Positions 6,033 through 31,319 of a DNA stretch of 64,000 nt are shown here, one piece after another (position 1 is the first letter of the stretch; each line of letters begins with the position of its first letter). The stretch is taken from assembly GCA_041398745.1 (NCBI GenBank), contig JAWKUB010000005.1, forward strand, positions 542,497 to 606,496, in the 5' to 3' direction. The notes beneath the pieces were generated by a model. The model saw only the letters and a program-made list of their open reading frames with translations, did not search any database and was not told where the DNA came from. The translations under genes and the position numbers were made by a program. The DNA comes from Planctomycetaceae bacterium. Its GTDB lineage: Bacteria; Planctomycetota; Planctomycetia; Planctomycetales; Planctomycetaceae.

Positions 6033-6133
6033 AATGAGGGTGGGGGAGTAACGCCACCAGCATACCCCAGTTCACCGCCCCGTCCAAGAAAATCATGGCC
6101 GAAGTTCACTGATCGCCGTTCAACCACCCCGAT

Positions 6134-6500: not shown

Positions 6501-6593
6501 TGTACGCGATTCATGCTAAACCGCATTACCGCTTGACACGCCTGGAGCTAACGTGGTAGCTTGGCTGCAGCAATTTTCATGCCAGGAACAAGA

Positions 6594-10585: not shown

Positions 10586-11128
10586 TCAATCAATCGAGAG
10601 CCGATCAAGTATGGTTCGTCGGAAAGGGTTTTGGTCGAGATTCCCGACGCGTAGGGAGTACAGGTCCATCAGGAGAGCCAGGTAGGCGAACTGTCCCCGT
10701 TGACAAAGCGGCAAATACGTGATGTCACCGACCCACACTTCGTTGATCTTCACCGGTTGTGGACGGTCCAGCAGGAGGTTGTCGTTGTAACCCAGTGTGT
10801 GCCTGCTTTCCGTGGTTCGGGGCTGGAACGATTTGGGCTGGATGGCTCTGAGACCCAGTGTTTTCATCACTCGCGAGACTCGATCCACACCACACAGAAC
10901 ATTGCGTTCCCGCAGTTCCGCCGCGATGCGACGTGCTCCATAGCGTCGCTTGTGTTGATGAAAGATCTCGCCAATCATCGCGTGTAGCGGTTCTTCCTGC
11001 TCTCTTTGAGGAGACACTCTTTCACGCTTCCAGGCGTGAAAGCCAGATCGAGAAACGTTCAATGTGCGACACACCACACTCACCGGAAATGCCTCTTGAA
11101 AAATCACCTGCTGAATTGCTGAGTACAC
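10586..11128 (-). pseudogene. IS3-family transposase OrfB, truncated
   Basis: It matches OrfB of the intact copy up to ...FAYLALLMDLYS, then runs into unrelated sequence. Only the first catalytic D region (WVGDITY) is retained. Confidence 0.85.
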
Positions 11129-11976: not shown

Positions 11977-12112
11977 GGCTGCGAGAGACGGGGAAGCGAG
12001 TCCAAGATGGTGGCAACTCAACAACCTGACGCATCTTTGTCGCTCTTCGGCGTTTGCTAAGTCCGCGACTCAAGGCCGAGAGTGGTAATTTGAACCTCTA
12101 CAGGGTGTGAGC

Positions 12113-12814
12113 ATGACAAGCACGAGCAAGACTGAGGTGAGCTATTTCCGGCCGCGAATTGACGGTCCGGAACTACGTATCGAAGATGCCGTTGTTTCGA
12201 AGCTGACCGAAATCTTCGAGCGAAACGATTGGCCCCTTTGGATAGGAGGTTCCGTTCCAATTGGTGCTGGATTCCCGGACATTGTTTCGGTTTGGTATGA
12301 CCCGCAGGTCATCACCCTCGCTGATTTCCCCGTCACCGATGGCCATATTCTGGCCTACCTCCGCACTGTGCGGCGAGCCACTCTTGAGACGATTGCAAGC
12401 CGTTTGCAGTTTTCGTCGAAGGATGTCGAAGACACTTTGCTTCGACTGACTGAGTCATCTGTTGTGGCTCGGGAGACAGAACGAGCCTTCGCCATTTCCT
12501 CCGCCTGGCGACAGATTCTCCCAGAAGTTATTACTGTCGAGGCCAAAGTCTCAGATTGGCAAGCAGCCTTACAACAAGCGAATCGAAACCGAATATTCGC
12601 ACATCGTTCTTTTGCCGCATTCCCCGAGCCGGTTGCCGAGCGGGTCATGAAGAAGTCCGGCTTTGAACTTCACGGCGTCGGGATTCTATCTGTTTCAGAG
12701 CAAGGTGAAGTCACCGTTGTCAGACCGGCACGCAGGAATAGCCCTTCTGTTTGGGACTATTATTTCCACTTGGCTGCTCTCGCTGCGAAAGACATGAACA
12801 ACAGGAACCACTAA
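12113..12814 (+). CDS. Hypothetical protein; possible PD-(D/E)xK nuclease fold with an inserted winged-helix
   Basis: GFPDIVSVW ... (ILAYLRTVRRATLETIASRLQFSSKDVEDTLLRL, wHTH-like) ... VITVEAKVSDW. The spacing between PD and ExK is unusually long, so the nuclease call is tentative. Confidence 0.4.
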   Translation: MTSTSKTEVSYFRPRIDGPELRIEDAVVSKLTEIFERNDWPLWIGGSVPIGAGFPDIVSVWYDPQVITLADFPVTDGHILAYLRTVRRATLETIASRLQFSSKDVEDTLLRLTESSVVARETERAFAISSAWRQILPEVITVEAKVSDWQAALQQANRNRIFAHRSFAAFPEPVAERVMKKSGFELHGVGILSVSEQGEVTVVRPARRNSPSVWDYYFHLAALAAKDMNNRNH

Positions 12815-13659
12815 TGTCATTCACCGTCGACATTAAGGACGCACAGGCACAGTTTCCGGACTACACGTTCATCAAGCCGCTTACACCAAGCGCTCAAAAA
12901 TGTGCATTTCACGTTCGCGATGCCGATGATACAGACCTTTGTCTGAAAATCATTTCTCCGACGTATGGAAATGACCGCCTACAGCGAGAGATTACTGCCA
13001 TGCAGCAAATCTCTCACGAGAATGTCGTTTCTCTCTTGGAGTACACTTTCTCTTCGACCCCGGGTTCGTTGAAGCACTATGTAATCGAAGAGTTTGTGGA
13101 GGGAGACGACTTACAAGCCCACCTCAACACGCCTTGGGACCGTTCTCGTCTCTCGAAAGTCTTTTCTCAACTGATGGACGGTCTACAGCAACTCAATGAG
13201 AAAGACATCGTTCACCGTGACTTAAAGCCGACAAACATCAGGCTCCGCTCAGATGACTCCCCAGTCATAATTGACTTTGGGCTGGCACGGCATCTGACAA
13301 TGACAGATTTGACCGCCACCGCTCAAGGAGCACAGATTGGGACTCCCCTTTATTTTGCACCTGAGCAATTCCAAGGGACCAAATACGACATCGACCATCG
13401 AACAGACCTGTTTGCGTCTGGGATCATCATCTACCAAGCACTCGTTGCCCGTCATCCATTTTATGCCGCTGGGATGTCGCGACCCGATCTGCAAGACCGA
13501 GTCTGTAGCAATGATGATTTCAAACGTGACGCGGATTTTCTTGCTTTGCCGAAGAAATGGCAACTACTGTTGAGCAAGCTGCTCGAAAAGGAACGTTCGA
13601 AGAGAATCAACTCGGCTCAGCAGGCTGCAATGCTGCTCCGCAAACTGGAGAATGAATAG
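12814..13659 (+). CDS. Hanks-type Ser/Thr protein kinase, stand-alone catalytic domain
   Basis: LCLKI (VAIK-like Lys), IVHRDLKPTNI, IIDFGLAR and PLYFAPEQ. There is no canonical GxGxxG loop. The start overlaps the previous stop (TAATG). Confidence 0.85.
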   Translation: MSFTVDIKDAQAQFPDYTFIKPLTPSAQKCAFHVRDADDTDLCLKIISPTYGNDRLQREITAMQQISHENVVSLLEYTFSSTPGSLKHYVIEEFVEGDDLQAHLNTPWDRSRLSKVFSQLMDGLQQLNEKDIVHRDLKPTNIRLRSDDSPVIIDFGLARHLTMTDLTATAQGAQIGTPLYFAPEQFQGTKYDIDHRTDLFASGIIIYQALVARHPFYAAGMSRPDLQDRVCSNDDFKRDADFLALPKKWQLLLSKLLEKERSKRINSAQQAAMLLRKLENE

Positions 13660-13661
13660 TC

Positions 13662-14852
13662 ATGCGAAGAGGAGCTTGGCATCAACTAGGCTGGAATCAT
13701 CAAAAAATGGTTATAGAGCAGCTGCAAAACAATGCGGGTGTTGGCATTGTTTTGAGTCCCCGAGATTTGAGCTATTCGAAGGCTAAGGAATACGTACCGC
13801 AGTACAAGGCCGAAGGGGCGTCCGTTGTACTTGACCCGCAGTGGCACATACCGGGATTCAGCAATACTCAGTTTGCTGAATACCCGACAGCCGACCTGAG
13901 AGCTTCCATCACGGACCTTGCCGCGATAACCGATACTGAGATGCAGCAGCTCAAGGACAAGCTTGTTTCGGAAAACTCCGCTCTTTCAACGGATGCCTTG
14001 ATTGCACCAGCAGTTCTGTACGCTGCTGGCAGAAGCGACATTGTGCAGTTAAACGCCAAGCTCCATGCCGTTGCCCGCGATGCAGCTGCAACGCTTGGCG
14101 TTCCGTGTTGGGGTACTGCATTTCTTGGCGAATCAATAACAAACAGCCAGCAGCTCGTGGAGTCAACGTTGTCCTCCGTAACCGCTTTGAATTGTGACGG
14201 CTGGTATTTTGGTTTTGAGTTTCCCTCAGAGCGAATACCGTCATCTACCGACACGGTTTACCGTTGCTTGCAGGCAGCTTTGCTGCTCGTGCAGACCGGC
14301 AAACCTGTCCTTCACGGTTACGCTGGGCCGCTTGGAATCCTCTCTTTTTCCTCGGGCTGCACCGGGGCTGCGTTTGGCGGAAGTCAGAAGCAGTGGCGGT
14401 TTTGCCCGGAAAGGTGGGAAGAATCTTCCGATGGTGGTGGAGGAGGACAGGCACCAGCTCGCTACTTCTCACGAAATCTCTGGGGGACAATTGTGTTTCC
14501 GGACGAAACGGCGTTATTGCCGCCCAATGTGCAATCTCAAGTGTTCACGCCCTCACCGTTCGCACCAAATCCACTTCCTACTACGTGGAGCAAGACCAAC
14601 GCACTTAAGCACCTCACGTACACGGTTTGCAAAGGTATCGAAAGTGTCGCAGCGAACACGGATTTGGCATCCTGCAGGCAAGCCGCCGAGAGCATGCTAG
14701 GCACAGCTGTTGGCCTTCACAATGACATAGCTCAACTCGGAATCACGCTAAAGGACGACACTGCCGCATATCAAGCGAATTGGCGTTCCGCATTGACTAT
14801 CCTGCAGCAGAACCACGGAGATGACTTCGAATTTCTTGACATGTTATTGTAA
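13662..14852 (+). CDS. Hypothetical 396-aa protein with no recognisable motif
   Basis: The ORF starts 2 nt after the kinase stop. It contains an internal SSDGGGGGQAP linker. Confidence 0.6.
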   Translation: MRRGAWHQLGWNHQKMVIEQLQNNAGVGIVLSPRDLSYSKAKEYVPQYKAEGASVVLDPQWHIPGFSNTQFAEYPTADLRASITDLAAITDTEMQQLKDKLVSENSALSTDALIAPAVLYAAGRSDIVQLNAKLHAVARDAAATLGVPCWGTAFLGESITNSQQLVESTLSSVTALNCDGWYFGFEFPSERIPSSTDTVYRCLQAALLLVQTGKPVLHGYAGPLGILSFSSGCTGAAFGGSQKQWRFCPERWEESSDGGGGGQAPARYFSRNLWGTIVFPDETALLPPNVQSQVFTPSPFAPNPLPTTWSKTNALKHLTYTVCKGIESVAANTDLASCRQAAESMLGTAVGLHNDIAQLGITLKDDTAAYQANWRSALTILQQNHGDDFEFLDMLL

Positions 14853-15053
14853 GTTATTGTAAGAAGGAGACTGTGTTTGCCATATGGTCTTTGGTGATCA
14901 AGCCATGGCCTCGCGGATCTTTCAGCCTGTCACGGTTTGTCACAGAACCCTTGCAATTTGTCGCATTTCTCGCGAAACTCGCAAGTGTGTGCTTGGCCGA
15001 AAACCCAAGTGACAAAGGGACTTCCAACACAATTTGGTTCCTTAACCACATAA

Positions 15054-15095
15054 CTGGGGGTCAAGAGGCCGCAGGTTCAAATCCTGTCGTCCCGA
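15054..15095 (+). pseudogene. tRNA-Pro(GGG)-like 3' fragment running from the anticodon loop to the discriminator base; a probable att scar
   Basis: CTGGGGG|TCAAG|AGGCC|GCAGG-TTCAAAT-CCTGT|CGTCCCG|A has the layout of a tRNA-Pro 3' half. There is no matching 5' anticodon stem, D-arm or CGGGACG acceptor upstream. Confidence 0.6.
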
Positions 15096-15293
15096 CTATT
15101 CTCAGAAATGAGCCCTTCGGTGAGTACGTCGAAGGGCTTTCTCATCGTGGCGCAAAGACTTGCGCCATCGAGCCTACAGTTCAAACTGCTGTTTGGGTCG
15201 AGGCGTCTTTGCGTGCCATCTTCCGTAAACTCTTGTTATGAAACCACTTGGCGAGTTCAAACCCCGTCACCTTTCTTGGCTCTTCTCACCTTT

Positions 15294-15910: not shown

Positions 15911-16900
15911 ATGGCCGGTCGAAGAGCACTTGTCGTTGGAATAGACTATTACGAACACGCCAGTCGCCTGTATGGATGCGCCAGGGATGCGATTTCCGTC
16001 TCTCAAGTCCTCAAACACCACGGTGATTCAGTTGGGAGCCTGAATTTCCAGATACCGGACTTGCTTACTGCCTCGAACGGGCTGCAAGCTGTGTCGGTCG
16101 CGAAATTGCGATCCGCAGTAAAAGAACTGTTCACACATGAGCCGTACGAAGTAGCACTATTCTATTTTGCAGGACATGGTCACCTTGATTCGACTGGCGG
16201 TTTCCTGCTGGGAAGCGATTCCAAGTCGGGAGACGATGGAGTGTCGCTTAACGACATCCTAACGCTCGCGAATCAATCGAAGTCTACAAACCGCGTTATC
16301 GTCCTCGACAGTTGCCATTCTGGCATTGCCGGAGTGTTACCTCTCTCTGGTGTCACGGCCATTGAAGATGGCGTAACCATACTTACAGCTTCGACGGCTC
16401 AGCAGTATGCAACCGAAGAAAATGGGGCGGGAGTCTTCACAGGTCTATTTGTTGACGCCCTGAGAGGTGGTGCGAGTGACATTCTCGGAAATGTTACCCC
16501 CGGCAGCACATATGCACACATTGACCAATCACTGGGTGTCAAATCACAAAGACCGACATTCAAGACGAACACAAGGGCGTTCGTTTCGCTGAGGCGAGTA
16601 GAGCCAAAGATTGGATTACCGGAGTTGCGTAGAATAACGGAGATATTCCCTGAGCCCGAGTACGTCAAGAAATTGAATCCCACGTATGAACCTTACCGTT
16701 CAAGCGATGAAAAGGCGCTTCCAGCACCGCACGAGGAGAACGTAGTGATCTTTGGCATTCTCCAAAAACTAAACCGCACTAATTTGGTAGTACCGGTTGA
16801 TGCTGATGCGATGTATTGGGCAGCCATGAATTCAAAATCATGCCGCCTTACTCCATTGGGAAAACACTACCACAGACTCGTCGCCAATGATTTGATCTAG
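15911..16900 (+). CDS. Caspase-like (peptidase C14) protease with a ~90-aa C-terminal extension
   Basis: RALVVGIDYY, FYFAGHG (catalytic His) and VLDSCHSG (catalytic Cys). Confidence 0.85.
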   Translation: MAGRRALVVGIDYYEHASRLYGCARDAISVSQVLKHHGDSVGSLNFQIPDLLTASNGLQAVSVAKLRSAVKELFTHEPYEVALFYFAGHGHLDSTGGFLLGSDSKSGDDGVSLNDILTLANQSKSTNRVIVLDSCHSGIAGVLPLSGVTAIEDGVTILTASTAQQYATEENGAGVFTGLFVDALRGGASDILGNVTPGSTYAHIDQSLGVKSQRPTFKTNTRAFVSLRRVEPKIGLPELRRITEIFPEPEYVKKLNPTYEPYRSSDEKALPAPHEENVVIFGILQKLNRTNLVVPVDADAMYWAAMNSKSCRLTPLGKHYHRLVANDLI

Positions 16901-16926
16901 CAACACCACTTCTTTGGAGCATAGCA

Positions 16927-19900
16927 ATGGACTCATTCCCGCCGATTCGCGTGTTGCATGTTGGGGTGACTTCCGCTGCCGCCTTTGCATTCATTTCATG
17001 GGTGCTTTTGCCCAGATTGCGTCAACAATTTGCTTTGCCAGCGGACCCCGTCGCAACGGTAGGACGCGCCGGACGTTACGCAATGTTCGCATGGCTACGA
17101 AATGTCTGTGGGATTTGTGTCGTCGCCTCCCTTGTCGTCGCCGGGATCTTGAGCGCGCTCTGGTTGTCCTCAGGGGCAATTGAACGAGACTCGCTAGACT
17201 CTTCACGTGCCCTCTTTGCTTCAGCAAGGGACATTCTCAAAGCGGTGCGCCCATTTTGGTGGATAGCGTCAACCGGGCTTCTAATTGCGGGTATGGCGAT
17301 CATCGCAAGGGCTCGCGCTCGCCGAGGGTGTGAAGAGTTCTATGCCGAGGAAGTGAAGCGACAGGTATTGCGGCTGCAAGAAGACCGGGAGAACGGCAAG
17401 CTTCCGGAGTTGCCGCCAGACGACGTGATGCGGAAGATCTTGGAACATGTCCACACACTTGATCGGCAACTCGGCGAGCTATTGAGCAATTCGCAACTCC
17501 AGGTCGGCGACAAGCAGAGGCTTAAAAAAATCGCCGAGGCAGAAATCGGCAAATTGGTCGCCATGTATCAATGGCGAGATCTTGAGCGCCGAGTTGAATG
17601 GCAGAACATAGACATTGCCTCGGCCTTGATTGCCCCGAGTCCGGATGCGGGAAATAGCTTCAAAAGTCGAATGGCCCGTTTTTTGACGTCTAAGTCGACA
17701 GTGTCTTTTCTGGATCGAGGCACACGCTACTTGGTAATTGCCAGTACATTGCTCACGTTGTTGTCAACCGTTGGCTGGATGTCCGTGCCTGCGGCGAGCG
17801 TTGCGACGTCGGAACACGATCGAATCGAAGATTTGCAGGCTGCGTTCAATGCGATCGACGAGGTTGTTGCCGCTGGGGTACTTCCGGCTTCAGAGGACGA
17901 AGAGGCTCAGGCAGCGATTGATGAGGCAACAGCGGCCCTAAATCAGATTGATCAGGAAGTATCAGCTGGCTCTTCCGATCTTGACGATCTGGAACAGAGG
18001 ATTGCTTCCAAGGTCAAAGCGTACAAGTCAGATGTCGGAGCGGCAGATGCACTCTTTGAGGAAATTGACTCCGCTTTCAAAGAGCAAGAAACGCGGAAAC
18101 CACCCCGTTCTCCTCTCGATATTCCAGCGGACGCACCGGGCAATGCTGATCGAGTCGCTGAGTTGGAGGCACAGCTCGCTGAACTTTCTGAACTGTCTCA
18201 AAAGGCAGAGTCGCTCGAAGCAAAGCCCGCCTCAACGATCCGCCGTGATCTCACTGCGGCCACTGAAAAGGTGGGTGAATCGACTAGACAATCTGCGGTC
18301 TTCGAAACTCAAATTGATCAACAGCGCCGACGTATCCGCGCTGCCCAAGCTAAACAGGATGCACGCTTTGAGAATCGACTCTCAGCACTTAATGCGAAAA
18401 GAGCTGAACTGGAAAGATATGCGTCCAATCCGGCTCTGGAAGCCGATGCGGCTAAGGCTCTTGATTTGGTTGACGGAAACAAGGAGGTTGTAGAACAGCG
18501 GGTGAGGAAGAGTAAGACGCTGTTCGGGGCCGCAGAAGCACGTGTAGCAGCGTCATCAAGAGCAGTCGAATCTCATCTTGCCAAAGCGGAAGGCGTATCA
18601 GCCATGATACCCGGCTCAGTAGATGCACCGCCTTGGGTTGACACTCTACCGAACTTGGTTCGTGAAATTCGACGGCGATACGGACAGACAAAAACCGAAT
18701 TGACGCTGGAGGCTGCTCGTCTGAACCCGCGGCCTCTAACTCTAACTTCAGAAGAAGTGACATTGAAGAATCACGCTCTTGACGTCATTGAAAGCCAAAT
18801 GGCGGAAGCATTTGAAGGGCTGTCGCCGAATGCTCGCGAAATGACGTCGAGCTCCAAATCAACTGCTGCTGCGGAGCAGATTCTGAGGTCACACGCAGCA
18901 AAATTTGATGCTCGGAACGTGCCAGGGACTTACCTGTCGGCGGACGGGTTGCCACCCGAGACACGAGAGTTTCTCAAGGCATTTACTGAGCGGGGCCCGC
19001 CTGAACAATCACTTCGCGGCAAATTAAATAGAATATTGGAGGGAGTCATTCCGTCACTTTCCGAATCTCAAAGGGCGGAGTTGCGCAGTACCCAGCCGCG
19101 CCGTGTAACTGCGACTATGAGCGAGTTCGTGTCACCGCTTTTTCGTAGTGCCACCATGGAAACCCTTCCAGACGTCTTCCATCCGGCAATCGACGCTGCC
19201 AATGAGTTGGTAACAGAACTGGCGTCCGGCACATCACTGAAGCCAACATTCGAAAGTCCGCTGACTGAATTGGAGTCTGGCAGGGCTCTGCAACAGAACC
19301 TTCGCCGCGTTTCAAGCTCTTTCGAACAGTCGGTGGTGACTGAGGCGATTCAGAGAAGCCCGGCGACGTTGGAGACTGAGCGGATTGTCAGTCGCAATGC
19401 TGATGGACCACAGCTCGCAAATGAACAGAATATCAGCAAGGCCTTTGAAGATTATTTTGATCGAGTGCCAGAGTCAGTTCGGCGAAGTCGGCAGGTACCC
19501 GGAATAAGTGCAGTCGAATCTTTTGATTCCCACTTCCCGGGCCAGAATCCTCCTCCTCCTGATATCCCTGATTTCGGGGGACCAACGGCCCCAAAGCCGC
19601 CCAAGGGACCGGCGCCAAGTGGAAGCGGGTCTGCATCGCTAGCGAGAAGGATCGAGCAGAACCTGTACCGCAGCACTAGGCTTAGCAGTCAGGCTGCTCA
19701 GAATCTCCGTTTCACATCGTCTCAGTCGTTCTCTCGTGCTCGAAGCTTCAGCAGACTCCGCGGCTTTCGGAGAATCGGGGGCGTGCTGATTGGACGGGAG
19801 TTGGAAGGTGATCCCCAGATCACTGACATTGACTGGGATTGGAATACAGACGACGACAGGATTCGATTACGCATCAAGGGGAACGATGGCACGTGGCACG

Positions 19901-21696
19901 AATCAGAGTACTTTGATCCGCATACGATGGAACTCGCCCTTGCGTATGCCGCTGATGGTCGGCCAATTACTGTTACCATGGTAACGGCATCACCATTGCC
20001 GGAATTGCAGATACTCCTTCACCCGACTCTGGTTGACACAAGCGTCGGACAGGATGCAATTGAGCTCGACCGCTTCGTTGACACCTATGCTCGACGAGAG
20101 CCCTTCTGTCAAGAGGCCGAAAACCGAGTCCGGTCGGCGAAAGACCTTTTTAGACTTGCTTGGGCCGTCCGAGTTCTCCAACTGAAGGAATATGGTTTCG
20201 GCGCAGTGCAGAGCCCTGACGAAGGAGCAGAGCTTCTTCAAATCTATGCGGCAACCTTCGCCGCTGCCTCTCGAATCCTCGAAGAGGCAGACGAAACCTA
20301 TTTGGTCGCGAAGCAAAACGCCAAGACTCTAAAGGACACCCCAGTGTCCGATCGCCCGGAGTTTTTCGACAAAACACTAGTTGCATACACAGAACGCGCG
20401 TTGGCATCCGACTCGTTTGAGGGATTTCGGGATTCAATTCAAACGGCAGCAAACAACGAAATGAGGTCTGTGATCCGCAAGTCCGGTGGCAGCAATTTCG
20501 AGTGGCTTGTGCAAAACCCAAAAGCGTGGCGAGTTTTCTCCGAAGAGAGTGCGAGATTTGAATCTGCGTTGAATACATACAACCAGAACGTCAAACGATA
20601 CAACAACCGAGTAAACCCTTCACGCACAGACTCTATTCTGGACCGGCTACGAGGTGGTGCATTTGACATAGAAGACTATCAACGATTGCAGGATTCACAT
20701 CAAAACGATCAGCTCGCAAATTCGATAGACGAGCAACTGGCATGGCTGGAAGCCGAGAAACCCAGGATCGAGCAGCAACAAAAGAGTCTGCAAGAGCAAC
20801 AGGAGCAGCTTGAAAAATACCTGTTCCCTGTGGTCTCAGGCACAATCACATGGAGACTACCTCCGGCAGATTTCGAAGTCTGGAGCGGCGTTCGCGAGTC
20901 GAACTTCGAATGCACCCTGGAGAATCTGACTCAACCTAGTGGTGACGAGTTGCCGTTTCGCTTCATGCTGCAAACAGCATTTACATCCCCTGCCTTCTTT
21001 GACGCATCCGGCGAACTAATCGAGGACGAAGAGGACGACAGAAACGAGGATGACATTCCTCCGTGGACGTTTGAAGCGATATCTGACGAGCTGCACCAGT
21101 CTGTGGTTACCAGCGTGACGGAGGAAGAGCGCCTGCTCATCTCTCGCATGTCTGAATTCACGCAACTCCAGCGCATTTTCCGCCTCTTCTTTGAATCCAA
21201 TCATCCGCAGTTGCATCGTCTCGTTGAGCTCAACTCGGAATTGAACCAAGCCGTTCCAGTGAAATTGGTTCGGACATCCCGATGGAATGCTCGGCCCGGG
21301 GCTCTTGAGATAATCTTGCAAATTCAACTTCTCGAGTTTGGCCCGAAGTTGGAAAACACTGAAGCTAAGTCACAGTTGGACGAGCTTTCAGAGCTAGTGA
21401 CTGAGCAGTTGAATGCTGTCGCGACGCTCCGTGAATTACAAGCTGCTGACGAGAGTGACTGGAGTGAGGGCTGGGACAGATACCTCAGGGCAATTGAAGC
21501 TGGAAGAAAGAAGCTTCCAGACATTGTGTCCAGCCTCGGCAGTATCAGTCGGGCCCAACAAGAAAACAAAGTGCTGGAACAGCTGCACCAAACGGCTAAT
21601 CAGTACTCTTTGGCGGTGCAGTTGAGGTCCGAGCTTGGGGTCATAGAAGACGATCGCGCGGTTTTGAAACGCTCGCTTGATAGGGGGAGTGAGTGA
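16927..21696 (+). CDS. 1589-aa hypothetical protein with ~4 N-terminal TM segments, a long coiled-coil, a Pro-rich linker and a large C-terminal region of unknown fold
   Basis: Hydrophobic stretches VGVTSAAAFAFISWVLL, VCGICVVASLVVAGILSALWL, WWIASTGLLIAGMAIIA and YLVIASTLLTLLSTVGWM. The middle is A/E/Q/L-rich, followed by NPPPPDIPDFGGPTAPKPPKGPAPSG. No P-loop or catalytic motif was seen. Confidence 0.75.
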   Translation: MDSFPPIRVLHVGVTSAAAFAFISWVLLPRLRQQFALPADPVATVGRAGRYAMFAWLRNVCGICVVASLVVAGILSALWLSSGAIERDSLDSSRALFASARDILKAVRPFWWIASTGLLIAGMAIIARARARRGCEEFYAEEVKRQVLRLQEDRENGKLPELPPDDVMRKILEHVHTLDRQLGELLSNSQLQVGDKQRLKKIAEAEIGKLVAMYQWRDLERRVEWQNIDIASALIAPSPDAGNSFKSRMARFLTSKSTVSFLDRGTRYLVIASTLLTLLSTVGWMSVPAASVATSEHDRIEDLQAAFNAIDEVVAAGVLPASEDEEAQAAIDEATAALNQIDQEVSAGSSDLDDLEQRIASKVKAYKSDVGAADALFEEIDSAFKEQETRKPPRSPLDIPADAPGNADRVAELEAQLAELSELSQKAESLEAKPASTIRRDLTAATEKVGESTRQSAVFETQIDQQRRRIRAAQAKQDARFENRLSALNAKRAELERYASNPALEADAAKALDLVDGNKEVVEQRVRKSKTLFGAAEARVAASSRAVESHLAKAEGVSAMIPGSVDAPPWVDTLPNLVREIRRRYGQTKTELTLEAARLNPRPLTLTSEEVTLKNHALDVIESQMAEAFEGLSPNAREMTSSSKSTAAAEQILRSHAAKFDARNVPGTYLSADGLPPETREFLKAFTERGPPEQSLRGKLNRILEGVIPSLSESQRAELRSTQPRRVTATMSEFVSPLFRSATMETLPDVFHPAIDAANELVTELASGTSLKPTFESPLTELESGRALQQNLRRVSSSFEQSVVTEAIQRSPATLETERIVSRNADGPQLANEQNISKAFEDYFDRVPESVRRSRQVPGISAVESFDSHFPGQNPPPPDIPDFGGPTAPKPPKGPAPSGSGSASLARRIEQNLYRSTRLSSQAAQNLRFTSSQSFSRARSFSRLRGFRRIGGVLIGRELEGDPQITDIDWDWNTDDDRIRLRIKGNDGTWHESEYFDPHTMELALAYAADGRPITVTMVTASPLPELQILLHPTLVDTSVGQDAIELDRFVDTYARREPFCQEAENRVRSAKDLFRLAWAVRVLQLKEYGFGAVQSPDEGAELLQIYAATFAAASRILEEADETYLVAKQNAKTLKDTPVSDRPEFFDKTLVAYTERALASDSFEGFRDSIQTAANNEMRSVIRKSGGSNFEWLVQNPKAWRVFSEESARFESALNTYNQNVKRYNNRVNPSRTDSILDRLRGGAFDIEDYQRLQDSHQNDQLANSIDEQLAWLEAEKPRIEQQQKSLQEQQEQLEKYLFPVVSGTITWRLPPADFEVWSGVRESNFECTLENLTQPSGDELPFRFMLQTAFTSPAFFDASGELIEDEEDDRNEDDIPPWTFEAISDELHQSVVTSVTEEERLLISRMSEFTQLQRIFRLFFESNHPQLHRLVELNSELNQAVPVKLVRTSRWNARPGALEIILQIQLLEFGPKLENTEAKSQLDELSELVTEQLNAVATLRELQAADESDWSEGWDRYLRAIEAGRKKLPDIVSSLGSISRAQQENKVLEQLHQTANQYSLAVQLRSELGVIEDDRAVLKRSLDRGSE

Positions 21697-23141
21697 GACT
21701 TTTCATCTCCTATAATCGTGACAGCGGCAGCAACTACGCGGAGTTCCTCCTATCAAAGATCGATTCGGAGGATGAGTGGGAGTCGCTCATTGATATTGAA
21801 CCGTCGGTAGTCACGAACGATTACTGGGATGATCTGGTTACTTCGCTAAAGTTTTGTGACTGTGTGCTCTTTGTGGCCACACGAGGAGCGTGCGACTCAG
21901 ATGAATGCAAAGCGGAGGTGCGTTACGCAAAAGCAGAAAACAGGCCCGTCATTATTTGTGAATTCGAAAAGATCGAGTCGTACCCTCGCGGATTTGAATC
22001 ATTCCATATAGTCGAATTTCATGCCAACTTTTCCGTCGGGTGGGATCGCCTTCGAGATGTTATCCTGGCAGCAAAAGCGGCCAAGGCGTCCAAACCGTCA
22101 ACGGGGTCGTCGACGTCACGCGATGCGGATAACACAGAATCAACAACAACTTCGGTCCAGCGGCGTCCCAACATCAACATCACTGGAACCGTATTCACAG
22201 TCTTGGCGGCTTTTGTTTTCGGTGGTTTAAGCGGTGCGAAGTATTTCTCAGCTTCTCCTGTTGCCGAAATCCCAGCGGAGAAACCCTTTCCTGAAAACAC
22301 CATGAAAAAAACAGAGGGTGATGCGCCCCGGGAATCATTTGATAATGAATTTGAGGCCCCTGAGCCAGAAAGAACGTTGGATTTCCTCGCAATGAATGAA
22401 GAATGCGCGGGGATTATTGGTGCTGAAGAGCTAAGCACCCTGCCATTGAAAACAAAGGACCAGCTGCTCCGGGAAATATTTGGACCAGAGATGCAGGATA
22501 AAAACATTACGATTAAAAAGGTAACCGCAGCGCTTACCGAATTAGAAGAAACTGAATCCGCCTTTAAGCAACTGCATGCTGCAGTCCGCAACGCAATACA
22601 GGACCCTAACACCAACGTAGCAATTGTCAATGAACTTACTTTGGCCCTTGGCGAAATCCCGAATGCTGACGTCAGTGCCCCGGATCCGGTGAGGGAAGCC
22701 CAATTCAGTCGATTCGCTGGTGTCAAGAGCACTCTTGGCGACTGTTCTCTTCAGCTTGCAAATGCAAATCATGTCCTGGCTGCAGTTAGGAATCATCCGC
22801 AACACATAGACCGAATCATAAAAGAAATCCGGATAGAAGACCTTGGGATAGACGGGCTTTTCGTTGTCTCCGTAACTATCGATGGCGGAACGGAATCAAC
22901 AATGCTATGTCAGCTGGAAGTCCGGGGAGGTGTGATTGAGAATCCTCTCTATGAACGCCGACGACGCGAAATGGAATTGAGGGGTTATATGGATCGAGCG
23001 GGAATACCGGGTCTCATTCCAACGGGAGTTCCAAAGCTCGGGAAGTTGGCCGAGGAACTTGCCGCGAACGAAGGCAAGGTTTTTGACGTGCCCCCCAGGA
23101 AGCATATGAGAGAGCCTAATGAATCTGCTGGGGGCCACTAG
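21693..23141 (+). CDS. TIR-domain protein with one TM helix and a ~290-aa C-terminal domain
   Basis: MRLFISYNRDSGSNYAEFL... and DECKAEVRYAK (candidate catalytic Glu). The TM candidate is ITGTVFTVLAAFVFGGLSGA. A GTG start overlaps the upstream stop (GTGA). Confidence 0.75.
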   Translation: MRLFISYNRDSGSNYAEFLLSKIDSEDEWESLIDIEPSVVTNDYWDDLVTSLKFCDCVLFVATRGACDSDECKAEVRYAKAENRPVIICEFEKIESYPRGFESFHIVEFHANFSVGWDRLRDVILAAKAAKASKPSTGSSTSRDADNTESTTTSVQRRPNINITGTVFTVLAAFVFGGLSGAKYFSASPVAEIPAEKPFPENTMKKTEGDAPRESFDNEFEAPEPERTLDFLAMNEECAGIIGAEELSTLPLKTKDQLLREIFGPEMQDKNITIKKVTAALTELEETESAFKQLHAAVRNAIQDPNTNVAIVNELTLALGEIPNADVSAPDPVREAQFSRFAGVKSTLGDCSLQLANANHVLAAVRNHPQHIDRIIKEIRIEDLGIDGLFVVSVTIDGGTESTMLCQLEVRGGVIENPLYERRRREMELRGYMDRAGIPGLIPTGVPKLGKLAEELAANEGKVFDVPPRKHMREPNESAGGH

Positions 23142-25728
23142 CGATCTCAGGGTATTCCTCTCGTCGACATTTGTCGACATGATTGCCGAGCGGGACGCGC
23201 TGCAACGGACAACGTTCCCCAGCCTGTACCGTACCGCCCCTGTCGACGTCATCCCAATTGATCTGCGGTGGGGGATACGCGACGAAAATACTATAGGAGG
23301 GAAACTGATCGATCTGTGTCTCGACTCCGTATCACGAAGCTCAGTCTTTGTCGGGATGATTGGTCAACGGTACGGAGCTGTGATAGCAGATGAGATTCTG
23401 GCAACTAAGCTGCCGCAGCGAGACTATCTCAAGCTAGGGCTATCGCTGACAGAATGTGAAATTCGGGCGGCCTTTGCAATGAAGGAAAGTGGCGAGGGGC
23501 CGCAGCATCTCTTCTTTGGATTTCGTAAAAATGACTGGACGTTCTTAGATGAGCGGGTGCGTCTTTTGCTCCCCGACGCGTTTCGAAATTATGCACCCTA
23601 TGAATTTGCAGATGATGATCCGGCTCTACTCGGGAAGCTTGCCGATCTAAGGGATTTTATCCGTTCTCGTGACTGCACGGTCATTGAGTATGCGAATGCC
23701 GACGAGTTTGCAGAATGTGTGCGCCGCGAACTCATACAGATCGCCCCTCGGCTTCGTCAGTACTCCGGCCCGCATTACAGAGGTAACGTAGCTAACAGCG
23801 CTGCTCAGTCATTGATCGATGATTGGCGCAGGGGCAAACGGCTGTTTCTGATCCCAACTCCGCGACGCCTACTTCTGGTCGGGGAATCAGGTATTGGAAA
23901 AACACATGAAGTAACTCGATACCTTTCTGAGAATTCTGAGAACATCCTATGCGTAGTCGCTGACCAGTTCAGTTCGATGGAGGGCTGCCTTCAGTGGCTC
24001 GAAGATCGGCTTCAAGTGAGTGGCCACGAATGTGCCAACGCTGCCAGACCGATTCGCCGCCGGGTATTCGAGCGACTTGTGTCTTTCGGTAATTCGGACC
24101 AGAACTCCTTGATTCTTGATGGCCTTGAAGAGCTATCGGTGATTCCCGATCTGTCATGGCTCCCGGATTGTAGGTTGCGGGTTCTTGCGACGACCACAAC
24201 CGATTCGAAATGGCACGCAGCATTTGAGCGCCTGGATTTCACCGTGGCCGATTTCCCTGCTCTTTCAAATCGCGAAGCATTGAAACTCTCCACTGATCTT
24301 CTTGCGAGGTACGACAAGCAGGAATGGCTATCCATTACTCAGGCTGTCAGAGTAAGGGGGCTTAGGAATCCTCAAATGCTCGCAACACTGATTGGCGGGC
24401 TGCATCGCGAGGTTTATGAAACAGTCGATGAAACGGTAGATGACTACGCGGACTTTTCGTCTGCATCAAGAATGATTGCTCGAACGTGGGGCAAACTTGT
24501 CGAAGACCTTGAAAGAAGTCCGGAAGATGGTGTTGTTCGCCGAATACTCCATTTTGTTTCTATCAGTCCTGCAGGAATTCATTCCTACGATCTCGAAAGA
24601 TTGCTGCGCACGACGGTCAAAGCGAATACGAGCATTGCGATGTCCAACCTTCGACCTTTCCTAAAGGAAGACAGTATGTTCATCCGGTTGCGATCAGCAG
24701 CCTTCAATGCAGCACGGCGACACCTAAACCCAACCCGTGAAGAATTGCGACAAAGGTGGAATGAGTACGGCGAGTTTTTCAGTCGTCGTGACGACATCCC
24801 CTTGAGCAGGCGTTGGGCAGCGTTACGTGGGTTGGGCGAACGGAGTAGCAATGACTCGTGGTGCCTCTCGCTGTTAGCTTCTGCTCCGCGGGAAATCATG
24901 GAATTGGCTTTCAGCAATGTTCGATTATTCCTGCATACCACTACCCGGGACGCTCAACTCAAGATTTTGGACGTTTTGTACGGCAAAGTCCCTGCGGAAT
25001 CACTCGAACTCGCAGCTCAACTTGGCCACACTGCTCTTGCCGCAGAGCGACTAGAACGTTTGCCGCCGCATCAATTTCGATTAGCTGTTATTCGCGTGGC
25101 CCCTGCGCTGATCGACTCGAACACAACGGAGACTGCAAGGCGTCACCTGATGCACTTGCTTCCGCTGGAAATGCCTGTAGCCGAACGGATTCAGACACTT
25201 CTCCTGCTTGCACACTTGGAAGTCAACGAAGGAAATCTAAAGGTTGCCGAACGCATACTTGACTCCTGCGAAGGTCACACTCTAAATGAGGACCCGCTTT
25301 CCCTTTCTAGGTGCTGGATTACGCTGTTTCGCAGTCGAATTGAATTCGCCGTGGGTGCACAAATCCCGATCCAAAGAATGATCAATCTACAGCAGACGTT
25401 TCTACAACACGAGGAGCAACGAGGAGCAGGATGGGCCGCGGTATGGATGTTTGACGTTTACGAAAAACAGGGTAACTACACGGAGGCAAACATGTCGGCG
25501 ATGACGCTGATTGGTGAGCTGGAGCAATCAAAGCTCCTGGGTCTGTACCGCATTATTTCACTAAGGCTTGCACACATGCTCGTCAGCCTTGACAGAGATT
25601 TGAGCTTGGCATTGCGATTGTTGGACAACTACGAACGGATCGGAACTGGGCTTTCGGATAATCGAAAACAAAGTGCCGACACCGAGTCTCTTAGAGCTGA
25701 GATCCTGCGTCGATTTGGAGGAGTTTAA
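23119..25728 (+). CDS. DUF4062-like N-domain + NACHT-like STAND NTPase + C-terminal helical (TPR-like) repeats
   Basis: LRVFLSSTFVDMIAERDALQ (DUF4062 signature), Walker A LLVGESGIGKTH, Walker B SLILDGLEEL and RVLATTT. The C-terminus is alpha-helical and repeat-like. The gene overlaps the TIR gene by 23 nt. Confidence 0.75.
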   Translation: MNLLGATSDLRVFLSSTFVDMIAERDALQRTTFPSLYRTAPVDVIPIDLRWGIRDENTIGGKLIDLCLDSVSRSSVFVGMIGQRYGAVIADEILATKLPQRDYLKLGLSLTECEIRAAFAMKESGEGPQHLFFGFRKNDWTFLDERVRLLLPDAFRNYAPYEFADDDPALLGKLADLRDFIRSRDCTVIEYANADEFAECVRRELIQIAPRLRQYSGPHYRGNVANSAAQSLIDDWRRGKRLFLIPTPRRLLLVGESGIGKTHEVTRYLSENSENILCVVADQFSSMEGCLQWLEDRLQVSGHECANAARPIRRRVFERLVSFGNSDQNSLILDGLEELSVIPDLSWLPDCRLRVLATTTTDSKWHAAFERLDFTVADFPALSNREALKLSTDLLARYDKQEWLSITQAVRVRGLRNPQMLATLIGGLHREVYETVDETVDDYADFSSASRMIARTWGKLVEDLERSPEDGVVRRILHFVSISPAGIHSYDLERLLRTTVKANTSIAMSNLRPFLKEDSMFIRLRSAAFNAARRHLNPTREELRQRWNEYGEFFSRRDDIPLSRRWAALRGLGERSSNDSWCLSLLASAPREIMELAFSNVRLFLHTTTRDAQLKILDVLYGKVPAESLELAAQLGHTALAAERLERLPPHQFRLAVIRVAPALIDSNTTETARRHLMHLLPLEMPVAERIQTLLLLAHLEVNEGNLKVAERILDSCEGHTLNEDPLSLSRCWITLFRSRIEFAVGAQIPIQRMINLQQTFLQHEEQRGAGWAAVWMFDVYEKQGNYTEANMSAMTLIGELEQSKLLGLYRIISLRLAHMLVSLDRDLSLALRLLDNYERIGTGLSDNRKQSADTESLRAEILRRFGGV

Positions 25729-25734
25729 GCAGAT

Positions 25735-26946
25735 CTAGAGAGGAGACGTGGCCATTCCAAAGACTGCATCCGCAGTTCGAATGTTGTCAAGCTTCGTTCC
25801 CGCTCCACATAGGCGAGTCTTCACTTCTGAAGCCTGAATTCTTCCTGTGTCGTTCATTAGACGCTGCCCCCATAGCGCAGCCAGACCAGCAACGTGCGGC
25901 GCAGCCATGCTTGTCCCTGACATCAAAGTAGGTGAGCCGTCGAGGCCTGCTGAAACGATTGATACACCAGGGGCGGCAATAGTGGCTCCATGGTTAGAAA
26001 ACCAAGCGATAGAATAGTCTTGTCCCTCTGCCGCAGTGCCGGTTTCTGAGTCGTTTCCTCGCCCAATTGCACTTACCGAAACGACTCCCTTTGCTGCCGC
26101 AGGAGGCGCTACCTGAATACTGTAGTCAGGACTGATGTGCCGACGACTTTCATTTCCGGCTGCGGCTACCAAGAGCGTACCTCCCCCAATCAGGTCACGA
26201 GCTAAGAGCCAGTCCGACAGCTGCCGAAACACCTCTACATTTTCAACGTACGCAGAGAGAGCCGTTGATGTTGCCAGATCCGCAGGGACGCCGTTGTCTG
26301 TCAGCTGCTTTGCATAACCCGGGAAGTCCATTCCGAGGGACATGGAAATTACATTCGCCCCTTGCTCGACCGCGGCCCACTGAATTGCTGCGGCGATGGT
26401 TTCTGAAGATCCTCCGCCTTTCCCGAGGACTTTCCCAATAATTGCCTTCGACACGCCGCTTGCGACGCCGATTCGAGAACCGCCTGCAGTACGACCAAAG
26501 ATCGTCCCAGCGCAATGTGTTCCATGCCCATCAGTGTCTTGAGGAACGTCCCTTGTAAAGTTCTTAATAATCATCCGATCTGCGATGTGTTCGAATGCTT
26601 CGAGGCCTTCAAATTGCTCACAGATTCCTGTATCAAGTACAGCGACGGCAACGCCCTCTCCGCTTAAAACCGACTCATTGGCGCGGACTGCCAAAATTCC
26701 CCACGAGCTCTCTCTGTCTGTTCCAGTTGGCGAAAATGAACTCAACCGCTCTGGGACACGTGGATACGACATTGGCATCGGTGGTGCCATCGCCAATAGG
26801 GAATCGTCCCTGCGTGCATCTGCTATTTCAGCAGCGGTCAACTTGAAAGTTTCTATTCCGATTTCATGCTGCGCGACGTCGAACCTGCTCGCTCGCACTC
26901 GACTACCAGACGACTGTGACTTAGCTCTCAGTAAAATGTACTGCAT
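25735..26946 (-). CDS. Subtilisin-like (S8) serine protease with no obvious signal peptide
   Basis: VAVLDTGI (Asp), HGTHCAGTI (His) and GTSMAAPHVAGLAAL (Ser). Confidence 0.85.
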   Translation of the reverse strand: MQYILLRAKSQSSGSRVRASRFDVAQHEIGIETFKLTAAEIADARRDDSLLAMAPPMPMSYPRVPERLSSFSPTGTDRESSWGILAVRANESVLSGEGVAVAVLDTGICEQFEGLEAFEHIADRMIIKNFTRDVPQDTDGHGTHCAGTIFGRTAGGSRIGVASGVSKAIIGKVLGKGGGSSETIAAAIQWAAVEQGANVISMSLGMDFPGYAKQLTDNGVPADLATSTALSAYVENVEVFRQLSDWLLARDLIGGGTLLVAAAGNESRRHISPDYSIQVAPPAAAKGVVSVSAIGRGNDSETGTAAEGQDYSIAWFSNHGATIAAPGVSIVSAGLDGSPTLMSGTSMAAPHVAGLAALWGQRLMNDTGRIQASEVKTRLCGAGTKLDNIRTADAVFGMATSPL

Positions 26947-29280: not shown

Positions 29281-30639
29281 ATGTCTCAGCAAGCTCAAGA
29301 TGCACTAGGCCCAATCTATTCCCTAGTTAATGATCAAAACAAGGTCATCGCGACGGCGTTCCGCTTGGGCAACTCCCGTTTCCTTGCTACGGTCGGCCAT
29401 GTCTTTGGAGCGGCCCATGTCTTCGCAGAGGCAGGAGGGCAATCTCAAAGCTGTAGGAGCGGACAACTCAAACTTCGCAAGGATGGAGAGAGGATTGATT
29501 TTGCCTTGCGGCAGAAGATGTTTGATCCTGATTGTGGAGTCGATTTTGCATTTATTGAAGTGGCTAGTGACCATGAATTGCCAACCCTCCGTGCGCCGCT
29601 GGGCGTTAGCCTGAGTGAGGATGTGTTCACCATCAAGAGCATGAGGGCCACTGTCTGCGGCAACGATGCTGCCCTGGGGGCTAGATCAATCGAAGTAAGA
29701 GTAGAAGGCCCAACGTTCCCCAGGGTCGACGAAGAGAAAAACGCGGTTATCGGGTTGAGTTGTCAGGTAGGGCTTAGTAATGGCTGCAGTGGCGCACCAA
29801 TTGTGAATGACCAAGGTCAGGTCGTCGGCATTTTTTCCTATCGATTCACCCCAAGCAGTAGTGATTCGAGGGCAGGATATTTTGCCATGCCTTTGTTCCG
29901 ATGCTTCCATCTGCATCCCACCTTGCTTCGATGCACTGAGCTACTTGATAGCTCCTGCTCTGCCAACTCGATGCCTTTTAACTCGGACAAGTGCCAACAT
30001 CTCGGGAAGGGCTTCGCTAGGAACTGGACGGACGAGCAAGTGATGCAATGCAACAGCATGAACCTTACTTGTAGATCTCACAAACCTGCTGTTGCATTAG
30101 TGGCCGCTATTACTAAAGCCTCGGCAGGCCGCCAAGTCTCGGCCCCGTTGCTCGATCAACTATTGAACATGTATAAGTTGATTCATACCTGTGGTGAAGA
30201 TGTTTCACGAAAGAAGTACGGAGCTCGATGCCGATATCACATTGACCAAATTCATCGGCTGGCAAAGCGTGTTTGTAGATCGACGTTGGCAGTCGATGCT
30301 GAAGCCGGGTTGGCAAACGGGCTCATGCGAGCCCTCCGGCTCCCAAAGAGTCTGAAGCCAGAGACGACGAAACTGGCTGAAACAATCGAGCGGATTGCTG
30401 AGTTTGAGCTCGCGCCTCGAAACGGACGTCGTGATTCTATGCCCGAAGACTTAGGCTGGTGGTTAGGCGACTTTTCGGATTCATTTGGCCATATCGTCGG
30501 CTGCCTGTCACAGGAATACCGACCTAGTGCCCCCGAGACTCGATACTTACTCGAGGCCAGCGAGGCACATGGAGTCAATCACGATGAATTCTCCGGTTTG
30601 GTCTACCAGCTTGCTAGCATCATTTCCCCAGCAGAATAG
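29281..30639 (+). CDS. Trypsin-like (S1/PA-clan) serine peptidase fused to a ~230-aa unknown C-terminal domain
   Basis: LATVGHVF (His), DFAFIEV (Asp) and SNGCSGAPIVNDQGQVVGI (Ser). Confidence 0.75.
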   Translation: MSQQAQDALGPIYSLVNDQNKVIATAFRLGNSRFLATVGHVFGAAHVFAEAGGQSQSCRSGQLKLRKDGERIDFALRQKMFDPDCGVDFAFIEVASDHELPTLRAPLGVSLSEDVFTIKSMRATVCGNDAALGARSIEVRVEGPTFPRVDEEKNAVIGLSCQVGLSNGCSGAPIVNDQGQVVGIFSYRFTPSSSDSRAGYFAMPLFRCFHLHPTLLRCTELLDSSCSANSMPFNSDKCQHLGKGFARNWTDEQVMQCNSMNLTCRSHKPAVALVAAITKASAGRQVSAPLLDQLLNMYKLIHTCGEDVSRKKYGARCRYHIDQIHRLAKRVCRSTLAVDAEAGLANGLMRALRLPKSLKPETTKLAETIERIAEFELAPRNGRRDSMPEDLGWWLGDFSDSFGHIVGCLSQEYRPSAPETRYLLEASEAHGVNHDEFSGLVYQLASIISPAE

Positions 30640-31107
30640 ATGAAGTGCGTTACGATGGACAATGACTATTGGAACGACGCAGTTGTTGAAGCCAAGAGAA
30701 ATGGATGGGTAGCTCCAGACTCTGACGATTTCTTTGAAGTGCTAAATGAGACAGCCGAACAAAGTAAGGTTGGGCCGGTCTTGCATGCGCCCTTGTTGGC
30801 AATGATTTCCGCAATGGCAGTGCTACTCGCTTCAGACGACAAGCCGTACTTCTGGCTCGTTCCAATCTTTGACTCGATTGCCGACGATCCAGAGTTGACC
30901 GGAACGGAATTCAAGCAATCCGCACGGTTAGGTTCGCTCTTAAATCAGGAGCAGTTCAGCCAAGTAATTGCGTACGCCGAGCGCTTCTCAGCGATTGCGA
31001 TAGTGGCGTCTCTCCTGCCGATCCAAGACGGTAGGCGGGCCCGTTATGGGGCACCATTTCGATATAGCAAAGGGTACTTCGGGGATCTCGATTGCGGTCT
31101 CGACTGA
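30640..31107 (+). CDS. Hypothetical 155-aa protein
   Basis: The ATG directly follows the upstream stop (TAGATG). No motif was seen. Confidence 0.55.
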   Translation: MKCVTMDNDYWNDAVVEAKRNGWVAPDSDDFFEVLNETAEQSKVGPVLHAPLLAMISAMAVLLASDDKPYFWLVPIFDSIADDPELTGTEFKQSARLGSLLNQEQFSQVIAYAERFSAIAIVASLLPIQDGRRARYGAPFRYSKGYFGDLDCGLD

Positions 31108-31319
31108 GATCATGTGCAATTCGGATGGTTTGTAGCGAGGCGATTGTACAATTGGCAGGGTTCCCACCGTCTCTGTCGCGTGTATCATCTTTGAGTAGCG
31201 ATACTGGCACATCCACTTACGAGATGTGAATTTCACCAATTTTGCGTTTGCCAAACTTCAGTGCTACCTGCCAATTGCGGGTATGCATCTCCCATAGCTC
31301 ATCGTGGAAAGTTTCACAG

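Follow-up and report, generated by a model that had tools for sequence, protein, structure and literature searches.

Four adjacent genes, here termed A to D, occupy positions 15911 to 25728 of a stretch of 64,000 nucleotides (nt) from a Planctomycetaceae bacterium (GenBank assembly GCA_041398745.1, contig JAWKUB010000005.1, positions 542,497 to 606,496 of the forward strand), which was analysed as a whole and is called the window. The locus looks like a STAND/TIR/caspase conflict system arranged around a new hub protein, the 1589-amino acid (aa) membrane protein encoded by gene B, and like a membrane-centred branch of such systems that is undescribed. A comparison of B loci across genomes points to B and D as the conserved unit. 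In our estimate the chances are about even that A to D constitute one co-transcribed conflict module, serving anti-phage abortive infection or programmed death, with a two-gene core and two extra effectors.

Composition and conserved linkage of the locus

It is the composition and the linkage of the locus that the data show. All four genes lie on the + strand. Gene A (15911-16900, 329 aa) encodes a caspase-like C14 peptidase (Pfam Peptidase_C14), gene B (16927-21696) a four-transmembrane (TM) protein with no family match, gene C (21693-23141, 482 aa, GTG start) a TIR-TM-tail protein (TIR_2), and gene D (23119-25728, 869 aa) a DUF4062(NIR)-STAND NTPase with helical/TPR repeats (DUF4062, AAA_22). 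A first-pass annotation, made by a model from the sequence alone, had reported these open reading frames (ORFs) with their motifs and junctions, and the same coordinates were obtained here after re-reading the junctions from the sequence. A and B are separated by a 26-nt gap (16901-16926, +), in which a GGAG ribosome-binding site precedes the ATG of B. The start codon of C lies over the stop codon of B in the tetranucleotide GTGA (21693-21696, +), preceded by GGGGGAG, and C and D overlap by 23 nt (23119-23141, +), with the ATG of D at 23119 and the TAG of C at 23139-23141. A promoter and terminator scan returned sites no more numerous than in shuffled sequence.

GTDB species genomes and JGI metagenomes were scanned for further loci with a 50-sequence alignment of the B family, which succeeded in yielding 125 loci, whereas a first contig scan with a two-sequence alignment had found nothing. 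Together with two relatives, L001 and L002, and the window itself, this resulted in 106 non-redundant B loci, whose ORFs were called afresh and searched by jackhmmer. A D-family gene lies at most three ORFs from B in 34 of the 106 loci, and the same holds for 20 of those 56 loci whose flanks reach 2.5 kb or more to either side. The B-D loci belong to Planctomycetota, Acidobacteriota, Proteobacteria, Verrucomicrobiota and Myxococcota. In 24 loci D is the next gene downstream of B, convergent (tail-to-tail) with it; the gap, between -16 and 200 nt, stays at or under about 100 nt in most of them. Since NIR genes occur in roughly 9% of genomes (DUF4062 literature), 34 B-D loci out of 106 make the contribution of chance adjacency negligible. 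The functional linkage claimed by the first-pass annotation is borne out, because translational coupling is seen in the window as well as in L002 and because the B-D pair recurs. However, the four genes do not form a conserved unit; that role falls to B and D, with the TIR-TM gene confined to a planctomycete clade.

The enzymes around B vary between loci. Among 149 other B neighbours, the top Pfam families were EAD11 (14), TIR_2 (6), DnaJ (4), Patatin (3) and Peptidase_C14 (3). A caspase-EAD11 gene is located directly upstream of B on the same strand in three Bacteroidota loci, and ten loci have an EAD11-TM gene a short way downstream of B, which in nine of them is the immediate neighbour; in the Bacteroidota relatives EAD11 is carried by the effectors and the TM adaptor, not by B itself. 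Further neighbours comprise a TIR-EAD11 protein in Algoriphagus, FHA-REC-TIR and S1-TIR proteins, and patatin and TPR-S-patatin proteins. In locus L070, a 1093-aa TIR_2-AAA_16-TPR protein (3402-6683, - strand) adjoins a 1681-aa B homologue, so that the STAND partner here bears a canonical TIR domain instead of NIR. Six loci (L130:9601-11211; also L131, L035, L068, L108 and L113) represent a third partner type, with a 150-aa ORF and then a DnaJ protein of about 340-370 aa directly downstream of B, and these form their own clade in the B tree.

This neighbour-joining tree of the B core (95 loci) shows that the partner type is clade-specific, with D, EAD11 and DnaJ clades. The window groups with L001, L002 and a third locus, L074, all of which carry D and a TIR gene, and the arrangement B-TIR(TM)-D is specific to this planctomycete clade. 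As the partner types (D, caspase-EAD11, EAD11-TM, TIR-AAA_16-TPR) differ between loci, B can be regarded as constant and the enzymes as variable, and the locus type appears to have its constant hub in B. The earlier picture of a giant membrane scaffold needs correcting: as the constant member of its large family, B is better described as a 'hub' than as a scaffold peculiar to one operon. With regard to synteny between B and C14, TIR and NTPase genes, every component class of the window operon recurs around B homologues, but the exact four-gene set is unique to the window, where alone a caspase of A's type adjoins B.

The three closest relatives illustrate how the locus varies within the planctomycete clade. 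L002 stems from a Pirellulaceae metagenome-assembled genome (MAG), its B homologue is 36% identical over the matched core, and its genes, all co-directional, follow the order Patatin - TPR-S/MAP3K_TRAF_bd - B - TIR(TM) - D - TIR - NUDIX; the junctions include a 3-nt gap and a 4-nt overlap. The order in L074 is TIR(TM) - B, followed by a convergent D. L001 carries B (52% identical) and D, with a TIR pseudogene between them (L001:4715-4850) that reads MKLYIS*NRVTGANYAEFLL..., is interrupted by a stop at codon 7 and lacks about 1.3 kb through deletion. The remnant keeps an ATGA start/stop overlap with B that is homologous to the GTGA in the window. Since the TIR gene has decayed in L001 while B and D stay open there, C would be dispensable. 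The N-terminus of the L001 B homologue is itself broken by in-frame stops close to the contig end.

Gene B and its family

No match to B was found in Pfam, PADLOC, NCBIfam, PHROG or among PDB sequences. A word-indexed search gave one homologue (P0001, 52% identity) and made B look like a near-orphan, a reading that was overturned by the full HMMER search. With B residues 850-1589 as the phmmer query against 1.84 billion representatives, 530 representatives were retrieved at E <= 1e-3 and 190 at E <= 1e-30; the 530 representative sequence clusters span at least seven phyla. Family members are typically 1050-1300 aa long and reach up to about 1680 aa. A Pfam domain is absent from all members scanned, and RefSeq names the relatives from cultured strains 'hypothetical protein'. 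Bacteroidota variants in cultured strains occur in Aquimarina sp. Aq78, Algoriphagus sp. SE2 and Lewinella sp. W8. Neither the B family nor its pairing with D is described in the searchable literature, the three DUF4062 papers included. Database record P0014, of 450 aa, shows 100% identity to the C-terminus of B (aa 1141-1589, 20347-21696), the full 1589-aa product is not on record, and B may have been misannotated or split in the public assembly.

Three modules are common to the family according to the alignments, namely an N-terminal four-TM module, a core and a C module, and B itself has all three together with the invariant residues. The N-terminal membrane module (aa 1-288, aligned over B 10-300; 16927-17790, +) consists of four TM segments and a conserved loop (aa 128-268). 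Hydrophobic segments were located at aa 9-29, 52-86, 109-128 and 268-288, in agreement with the roughly four TM segments noted before. The core (aa ~901-1190) and the C module (aa ~1300-1480) follow at 19627-21366 (+). Core motifs are RARSFxxLRGFxRVGGVLIGR, ALxYAADGRPxTVTM, HPxLVDT and IELDRFVD, and those of the C module are WSGVRE, PFxFMLQVAFTS, LQRLFR and RTxRWNxRPG.

Between these conserved parts, aa 291-900 (17797-19626, +) were assigned by composition and heptad scan to a variable linker rather than to one continuous coil. The 'very long coiled-coil' of the first-pass annotation was therefore overstated: heptad-like stretches are indeed present in the Ala/Glu-rich, helical aa 291-600 (35 windows vs 6.5 +/- 6.8 in shuffles), but aa 601-900 are Ser/Pro-rich, with 10% Pro. 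The linker is poorly covered by family members and measures 601 aa here compared with a family median of 366 aa.

Confident AlphaFold2 models were obtained for aa 901-1589 (m640a348d791d; predicted local distance difference test (pLDDT) 86, predicted template modelling score (pTM) 0.83) and for the all-helical aa 1-350 (m9903d8d2be2d; pLDDT 87). Foldseek returned nothing significant for either model against PDB (best E 0.15 for the C-terminal and 0.1 for the N-terminal model) or for the C-terminal model against BFVD, and the best values across searches were E 0.1-0.3 with template modelling (TM) scores around 0.1-0.2. A PDB profile search with the B core gave no match. In nearly all of 50 family members, Lys/Arg residues are enriched after TM1 and TM3 and scarce after TM2. 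Owing to this distribution, loops 1 and 3, including the conserved loop aa 128-268, are predicted to be cytoplasmic. The ~1300 residues of B beyond TM4 are placed outside the membrane with moderate confidence, on condition that TM4 spans it a single time.

Gene D, a predicted NIR-STAND-TPR protein

The N-terminal domain of D matched DUF4062 (PF13271; E 7.8e-11, 42.5 bits vs a cut-off of 24.7), and aa 9-117 matched the solved NIR domain of TEP1 (11gz_A) with E 3.2e-15. In this alignment SLTECEI of D stands opposite SVTEMEV of TEP1. The residues S109/T111/E112/E114 are encoded at nt 23443-23460, and either Glu could be the catalytic one. Experiments have shown DUF4062 (NIR) to be a TIR-like NADase with a role in phage defence and a requirement for a conserved Glu (bioRxiv 10.64898/2026.05.01.722283, 10.64898/2026.09.04.749371), which corresponds to E97 of KpSwz and E108 of PsAvs2 (2026 DUF4062 preprints, three in all). 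As DUF4062 is a TIR-like NADase domain and the Glu motif is intact, D would be sensor and effector in one protein, with a predicted NADase activity. The earlier proposal of a sensor NTPase separate from the enzymatic effectors is thus not supported.

The central part of D holds Walker A (GESGIGKT, aa 255-262, nt 23881-23904) and Walker B (LILDGLEEL, aa 331-339, nt 24109-24135). Pfam matched it to AAA_22 (E 5e-6) and to AAA_16. Both Walker motifs given by the first-pass annotation, including the Walker B that it called NACHT-like, were confirmed, but a NACHT signature was undetected in D itself, where only AAA_22 and AAA_16 were matched. In a D homologue (L004_13), NACHT (25.4 bits, cut-off 26.7) and NPHP3_N (24.1 bits, cut-off 24.8) remained below threshold, and no NACHT structure was found by a profile search of the D family against PDB. 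The same profile retrieved TEP1 at 8e-49 and, with its C-terminal third, the TPR proteins GPSM2, kinesin light chain and IFIT at 1e-15 to 1e-6; the helical/TPR repeats reported for D are visible at this family-profile level only. Invariant in 12-13 B-linked D homologues are FxSSTFxDM..ER, DLRWG, RYG, S-x-T-E-x-E and the Walker A motif GxxGxGK[ST]. D is identical to a database protein named 'MAG: DUF4062 domain-containing protein [Planctomycetaceae bacterium]', and among its non-syntenic relatives the closest reach only 25-35% identity, over a part of their length.

Genes C and A

The TIR domain of C (aa 1-135) scored above the gathering threshold of TIR_2 (E 2.7e-7, 31.6 bits vs a cut-off of 28). 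TIR NADases share the catalytic pattern S-x-W-C-x-x-E, which the motif S69-D-E-C72-K-A-E75 of C fits (E75 at nt 21915-21917). With a TIR domain and the conserved Glu, C is a putative TIR NADase. One TM segment (aa 161-185, nt 22173-22247) follows, so the earlier description as a TIR protein with a single TM helix holds, and the C-terminal ~300 aa gave no family match. A word-indexed search of 5.8 billion proteins returned no homologue of C but C itself. The only relative found, by pairwise BLAST and jackhmmer, is the syntenic TIR-TM gene of L002, which is 29% identical over the first 92 aa and conserves the Glu and the S-x-E-C-x-x-E motif. The TIR-TM-tail layout is common to C and its counterparts in L002 (L002_11) and L074 (L074_3), and the tail sequence is unconserved.

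Gene A was matched to Peptidase_C14 (PF00656) in Pfam (E 4.6e-17, 62.9 bits vs a cut-off of 21.4) and to the PADLOC caspase model (E 1.3e-16). Its catalytic dyad, already noted as intact, consists of His89 in FYFAGHG (nt 16175-16177) and Cys135 in VLDSCHSG (nt 16313-16315), both of which align with the dyad of the metacaspase 4f6o. A scored 83.5 bits, under the cut-off of 140, with the NCBIfam model 'caspase, EACC1-associated type' (caspase_w_EACC1, NF047832). A full-length match to phrog_18397 (E 4.6e-74) includes the C-terminal extension (aa 225-329), which is conserved in that family. Full-length homologues were found on a phage-like contig (L129, MT835687.1, 2625-3608; 53% identity) and in Salmonella enterica houtenae (L128, AGRM01000005.1, 371917-372882; 42% identity). 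The latter lies in an integrase-flanked integrative-element island at tRNA-Leu, close to a RES-domain gene. Since these homologues sit without B, C and D, A belongs to a mobile, stand-alone caspase family. A jackhmmer search seeded with A found no homologue beside B in the other loci and missed the divergent caspase-EAD11 genes, which were revealed by the Pfam scan of the B neighbours.

Proposed mechanism and alternative explanations

In the reading that we prefer, B would be a membrane sensor or scaffold, D a switch and NAD+-depleting executioner, and C and A add-on effectors; we would put this division of roles at no better and no worse than evens. For the direction of signalling and the topology we infer the following. 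B would be the constant membrane-embedded sensor or scaffold and its neighbours variable death effectors. A periplasmic location is likely for the bulk of B and for C's C-terminal domain, and the B loop aa 128-268 would be cytoplasmic. An envelope disturbance or a phage component may be relayed to D, whose TPR/STAND part would oligomerise and switch on the NIR NADase, and NAD+ would be depleted. The membrane-tethered TIR domain of C, clustered at the same site, could contribute a second NADase or a signalling activity. Caspase A might contribute a proteolytic activity directed at cell proteins or at the long linkers in B or C. In the end the infected cell would stop growing or die. The mobile caspase-like A appears to have been added 26 nt upstream of B in the window, and its membership in the system is argued from this spacing and from the parallel with the caspase-EAD11-to-B arrangement in Bacteroidota. 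With one constant membrane protein, exchangeable NADase, protease and lipase partners and, in addition, adaptor domains, the comparative pattern agrees with the 'constant core, variable effector' scheme known from conflict systems of prokaryotes (PMC7159879).

Several observations weigh against this reading. About 64% of the B loci with enough flank have no adjoining D gene, and a large alphaproteobacterial B clade is without a recognisable partner. The Lys/Arg balance around TM4 of B is ambiguous, and the predicted fold of B offers no functional clue. An all-against-all BLAST revealed no adaptor (EAD-like) domain shared among A to D and their neighbours. The counterpart of C is a pseudogene in L001 next to open B and D genes, B, C and D are not near the A homologues of L128 and L129, and the D-type architecture works alone in PsAvs2, a NIR-Avs protein with the layout DUF4062-STAND-TPR.

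A bolder form of the preferred reading, which we regard as tentative and on the unlikely side, takes B and the TIR-TM protein as a trans-envelope receptor layer. Extracytoplasmic events such as a kin signal, damage to the envelope, or the adsorption or injection step of a phage would be sensed by their large non-cytoplasmic domains, after which the cytoplasmic loop of B would set off the NLR-like NIR NADase, the membrane TIR and the caspase. If true, it would be a bacterial counterpart of combined TLR-like (Toll-like receptor), NLR-like and caspase signalling, organised by a previously unseen fold. The opposite direction, in which B is the terminal effector, is in our judgement unlikely. B would then be a latent membrane-disrupting protein freed by the caspase or by a nucleotide product of TIR/NIR, similar to gasdermin, EACC1, Pepco and the TM effectors of Thoeris II and CBASS. 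The four TM helices and the long, cleavable linkers of B fit this idea, a protease with an adjoining membrane-active protein is an experimentally established design (PMC12642450), and both in the window and in three Bacteroidota loci the gene that directly precedes B on its strand encodes a caspase. However, a caspase (A or caspase-EAD11) is present in only 4 of the 106 non-redundant loci, and B is the constant component, with partners that include enzymes that are themselves terminal effectors (NADases, patatin). At 1100-1650 aa and with large conserved soluble modules, B is moreover unlike the known pore-forming effectors of 12-50 kDa, and the characterised NIR enzymes hydrolyse NAD+ to ADP-ribose rather than making signals (2026 DUF4062 preprints).

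The genes might also owe their proximity to juxtaposition within an island, with D as a self-sufficient NIR-Avs-like protein, A as a mobile caspase, C as an orphan TIR protein and B as unrelated. Sufficiency of the D architecture in PsAvs2, the decay of C in L001, the occurrence of A's family alone in a phage-like contig and in a Salmonella island resembling an integrative and conjugative element (ICE), and the other protease and kinase genes flanking the locus all speak for it. Against this stand the B-D pairs within three ORFs in 34 of 106 loci from several phyla, a B phylogeny that tracks partner type, and start and stop codons that overlap both here and in L002. We consider it improbable for the locus as a whole; for gene A alone, juxtaposition comes fairly close to an even chance. 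More improbable still would be a role outside defence, with B as an envelope or surface protein of structural or developmental function and its partners engaged in regulated death or kin discrimination among bacteria of complex lifestyle, along the lines that Kaur et al. proposed for multicellular prokaryotes. Such a role would agree with the host phyla Planctomycetota, Acidobacteriota, Bacteroidota and Myxococcota, which fit the published lifestyle bias (PMC7159879), with the ordinary neighbours of many B loci, and with the finding of the B core in neither the PLSDB plasmids nor the GenBank phage collections. It is at odds with the patchy, transfer-like distribution of B, with integrases or transposases close by in some loci, and with NIR and TIR domains that have been overwhelmingly defence-linked in experiments so far.

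Surrounding genes

Upstream of A, four co-directional ORFs (12107-15241, +), three of them without a family, end 670 nt before its start. They include a Ser/Thr kinase (12751-13659; Pkinase E 5.7e-35), whose PADLOC match to PD-T4-6 (149 bits) is possibly that of a generic kinase. Further upstream, a truncated insertion sequence transposase remnant (10586-11128, -) comprising HTH_21 and the first 30 residues of rve hints at a mobile element or an island as the setting. On the other side, an S8 subtilase gene (25735-26946, -; PADLOC 'subtilase' 52 bits) ends 6 nt from the stop codon of D in tail-to-tail orientation. A trypsin-like peptidase gene (452 aa) followed by a 155-aa and a 1063-aa ORF, both without a family, occupies 29281-34433 (+); these genes may make up a protease-effector module of their own. 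At 35360-41763, downstream of D, PSD/PSCyt/DUF1552 genes specific to planctomycetes and a SUFU-like gene mark the host lineage.

Comparison with known systems

The innate immunity of animals and plants has its bacterial roots in STAND, TIR and caspase systems. The set of genes found here carries no fitting PADLOC, NCBIfam or literature name, as the first-pass annotation had supposed. As a sensor, B would make the locus a rare instance in which NLR-type immunity of bacteria is connected to the cell envelope, and as an effector it would represent a novel kind of membrane executioner.

The TIR-TM proteins C, L002_11 and L074_3 resemble a Toll-like receptor (ectodomain-TM-TIR) in that each has one TM segment between the TIR domain and a non-cytoplasmic-looking domain. 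However, the order in C is reversed, with an N-terminal TIR domain, and its ectodomain is without leucine-rich repeats (LRRs) and unconserved between relatives. The likeness is to be read as an analogy only, and homology is not claimed beyond the TIR domain. With Thoeris, C has in common a TIR_2 domain with the conserved Glu and weak matches to ThsB (17.6 bits) and ThcB4 (28 bits), but differs by its own TM helix and tail. An assignment to Thoeris was rejected, as the scores stay far below the cut-off (220 bits for ThcB4) and no ThsA-type gene (SIR2, Macro, SLOG) is found in the neighbourhood. The protease-effector modules (EACC1-caspase, Pepco-trypsin, gasdermin-protease) are matched by the caspase-like gene A adjoining a membrane-protein gene, yet in size B exceeds EACC1 or Pepco about tenfold. 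The EACC1-caspase system was likewise rejected, in view of the 83.5 bits of A against the required 140 and of an upstream 122-aa ORF that has no TM segment or family and lies 670 nt away.

The EAD-coupled conflict systems (Kaur, Burroughs, Iyer, Aravind 2020, 2021) share with the B loci a constant core and rapidly varying caspase, TIR and patatin neighbours. Unlike in these systems, the constant part is here a four-TM giant without a known domain and not an NTPase (vWA-MoxR, GTPase, iSTAND). In addition, the four proteins of the window have no EAD match in Pfam and no mutual similarity. The 2020 and 2021 papers list EAD11 in supplementary tables only, as a fusion to LRR-AP-GTPase proteins.

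For D, the comparison leads to the NIR-Avs and NLR-like NADases (PsAvs2; TEP1, NWD1, NPHP3), with which it has the three-part NIR-STAND P-loop-TPR layout in common. A place of D in a described Avs clade was rejected, because D has no PADLOC match at E <= 0.01, a result that covers Avs if the PADLOC library holds models for it. Unlike a single-gene Avs, D is conserved beside a giant membrane protein and is here translationally coupled to a TIR-TM gene. By analogy with NIR-Avs, its output would be expected to be NAD+ depletion after oligomerisation. The NIR/DUF4062 NADase was characterised only in 2026, and the present locus ties this enzyme class to a widespread giant membrane protein.

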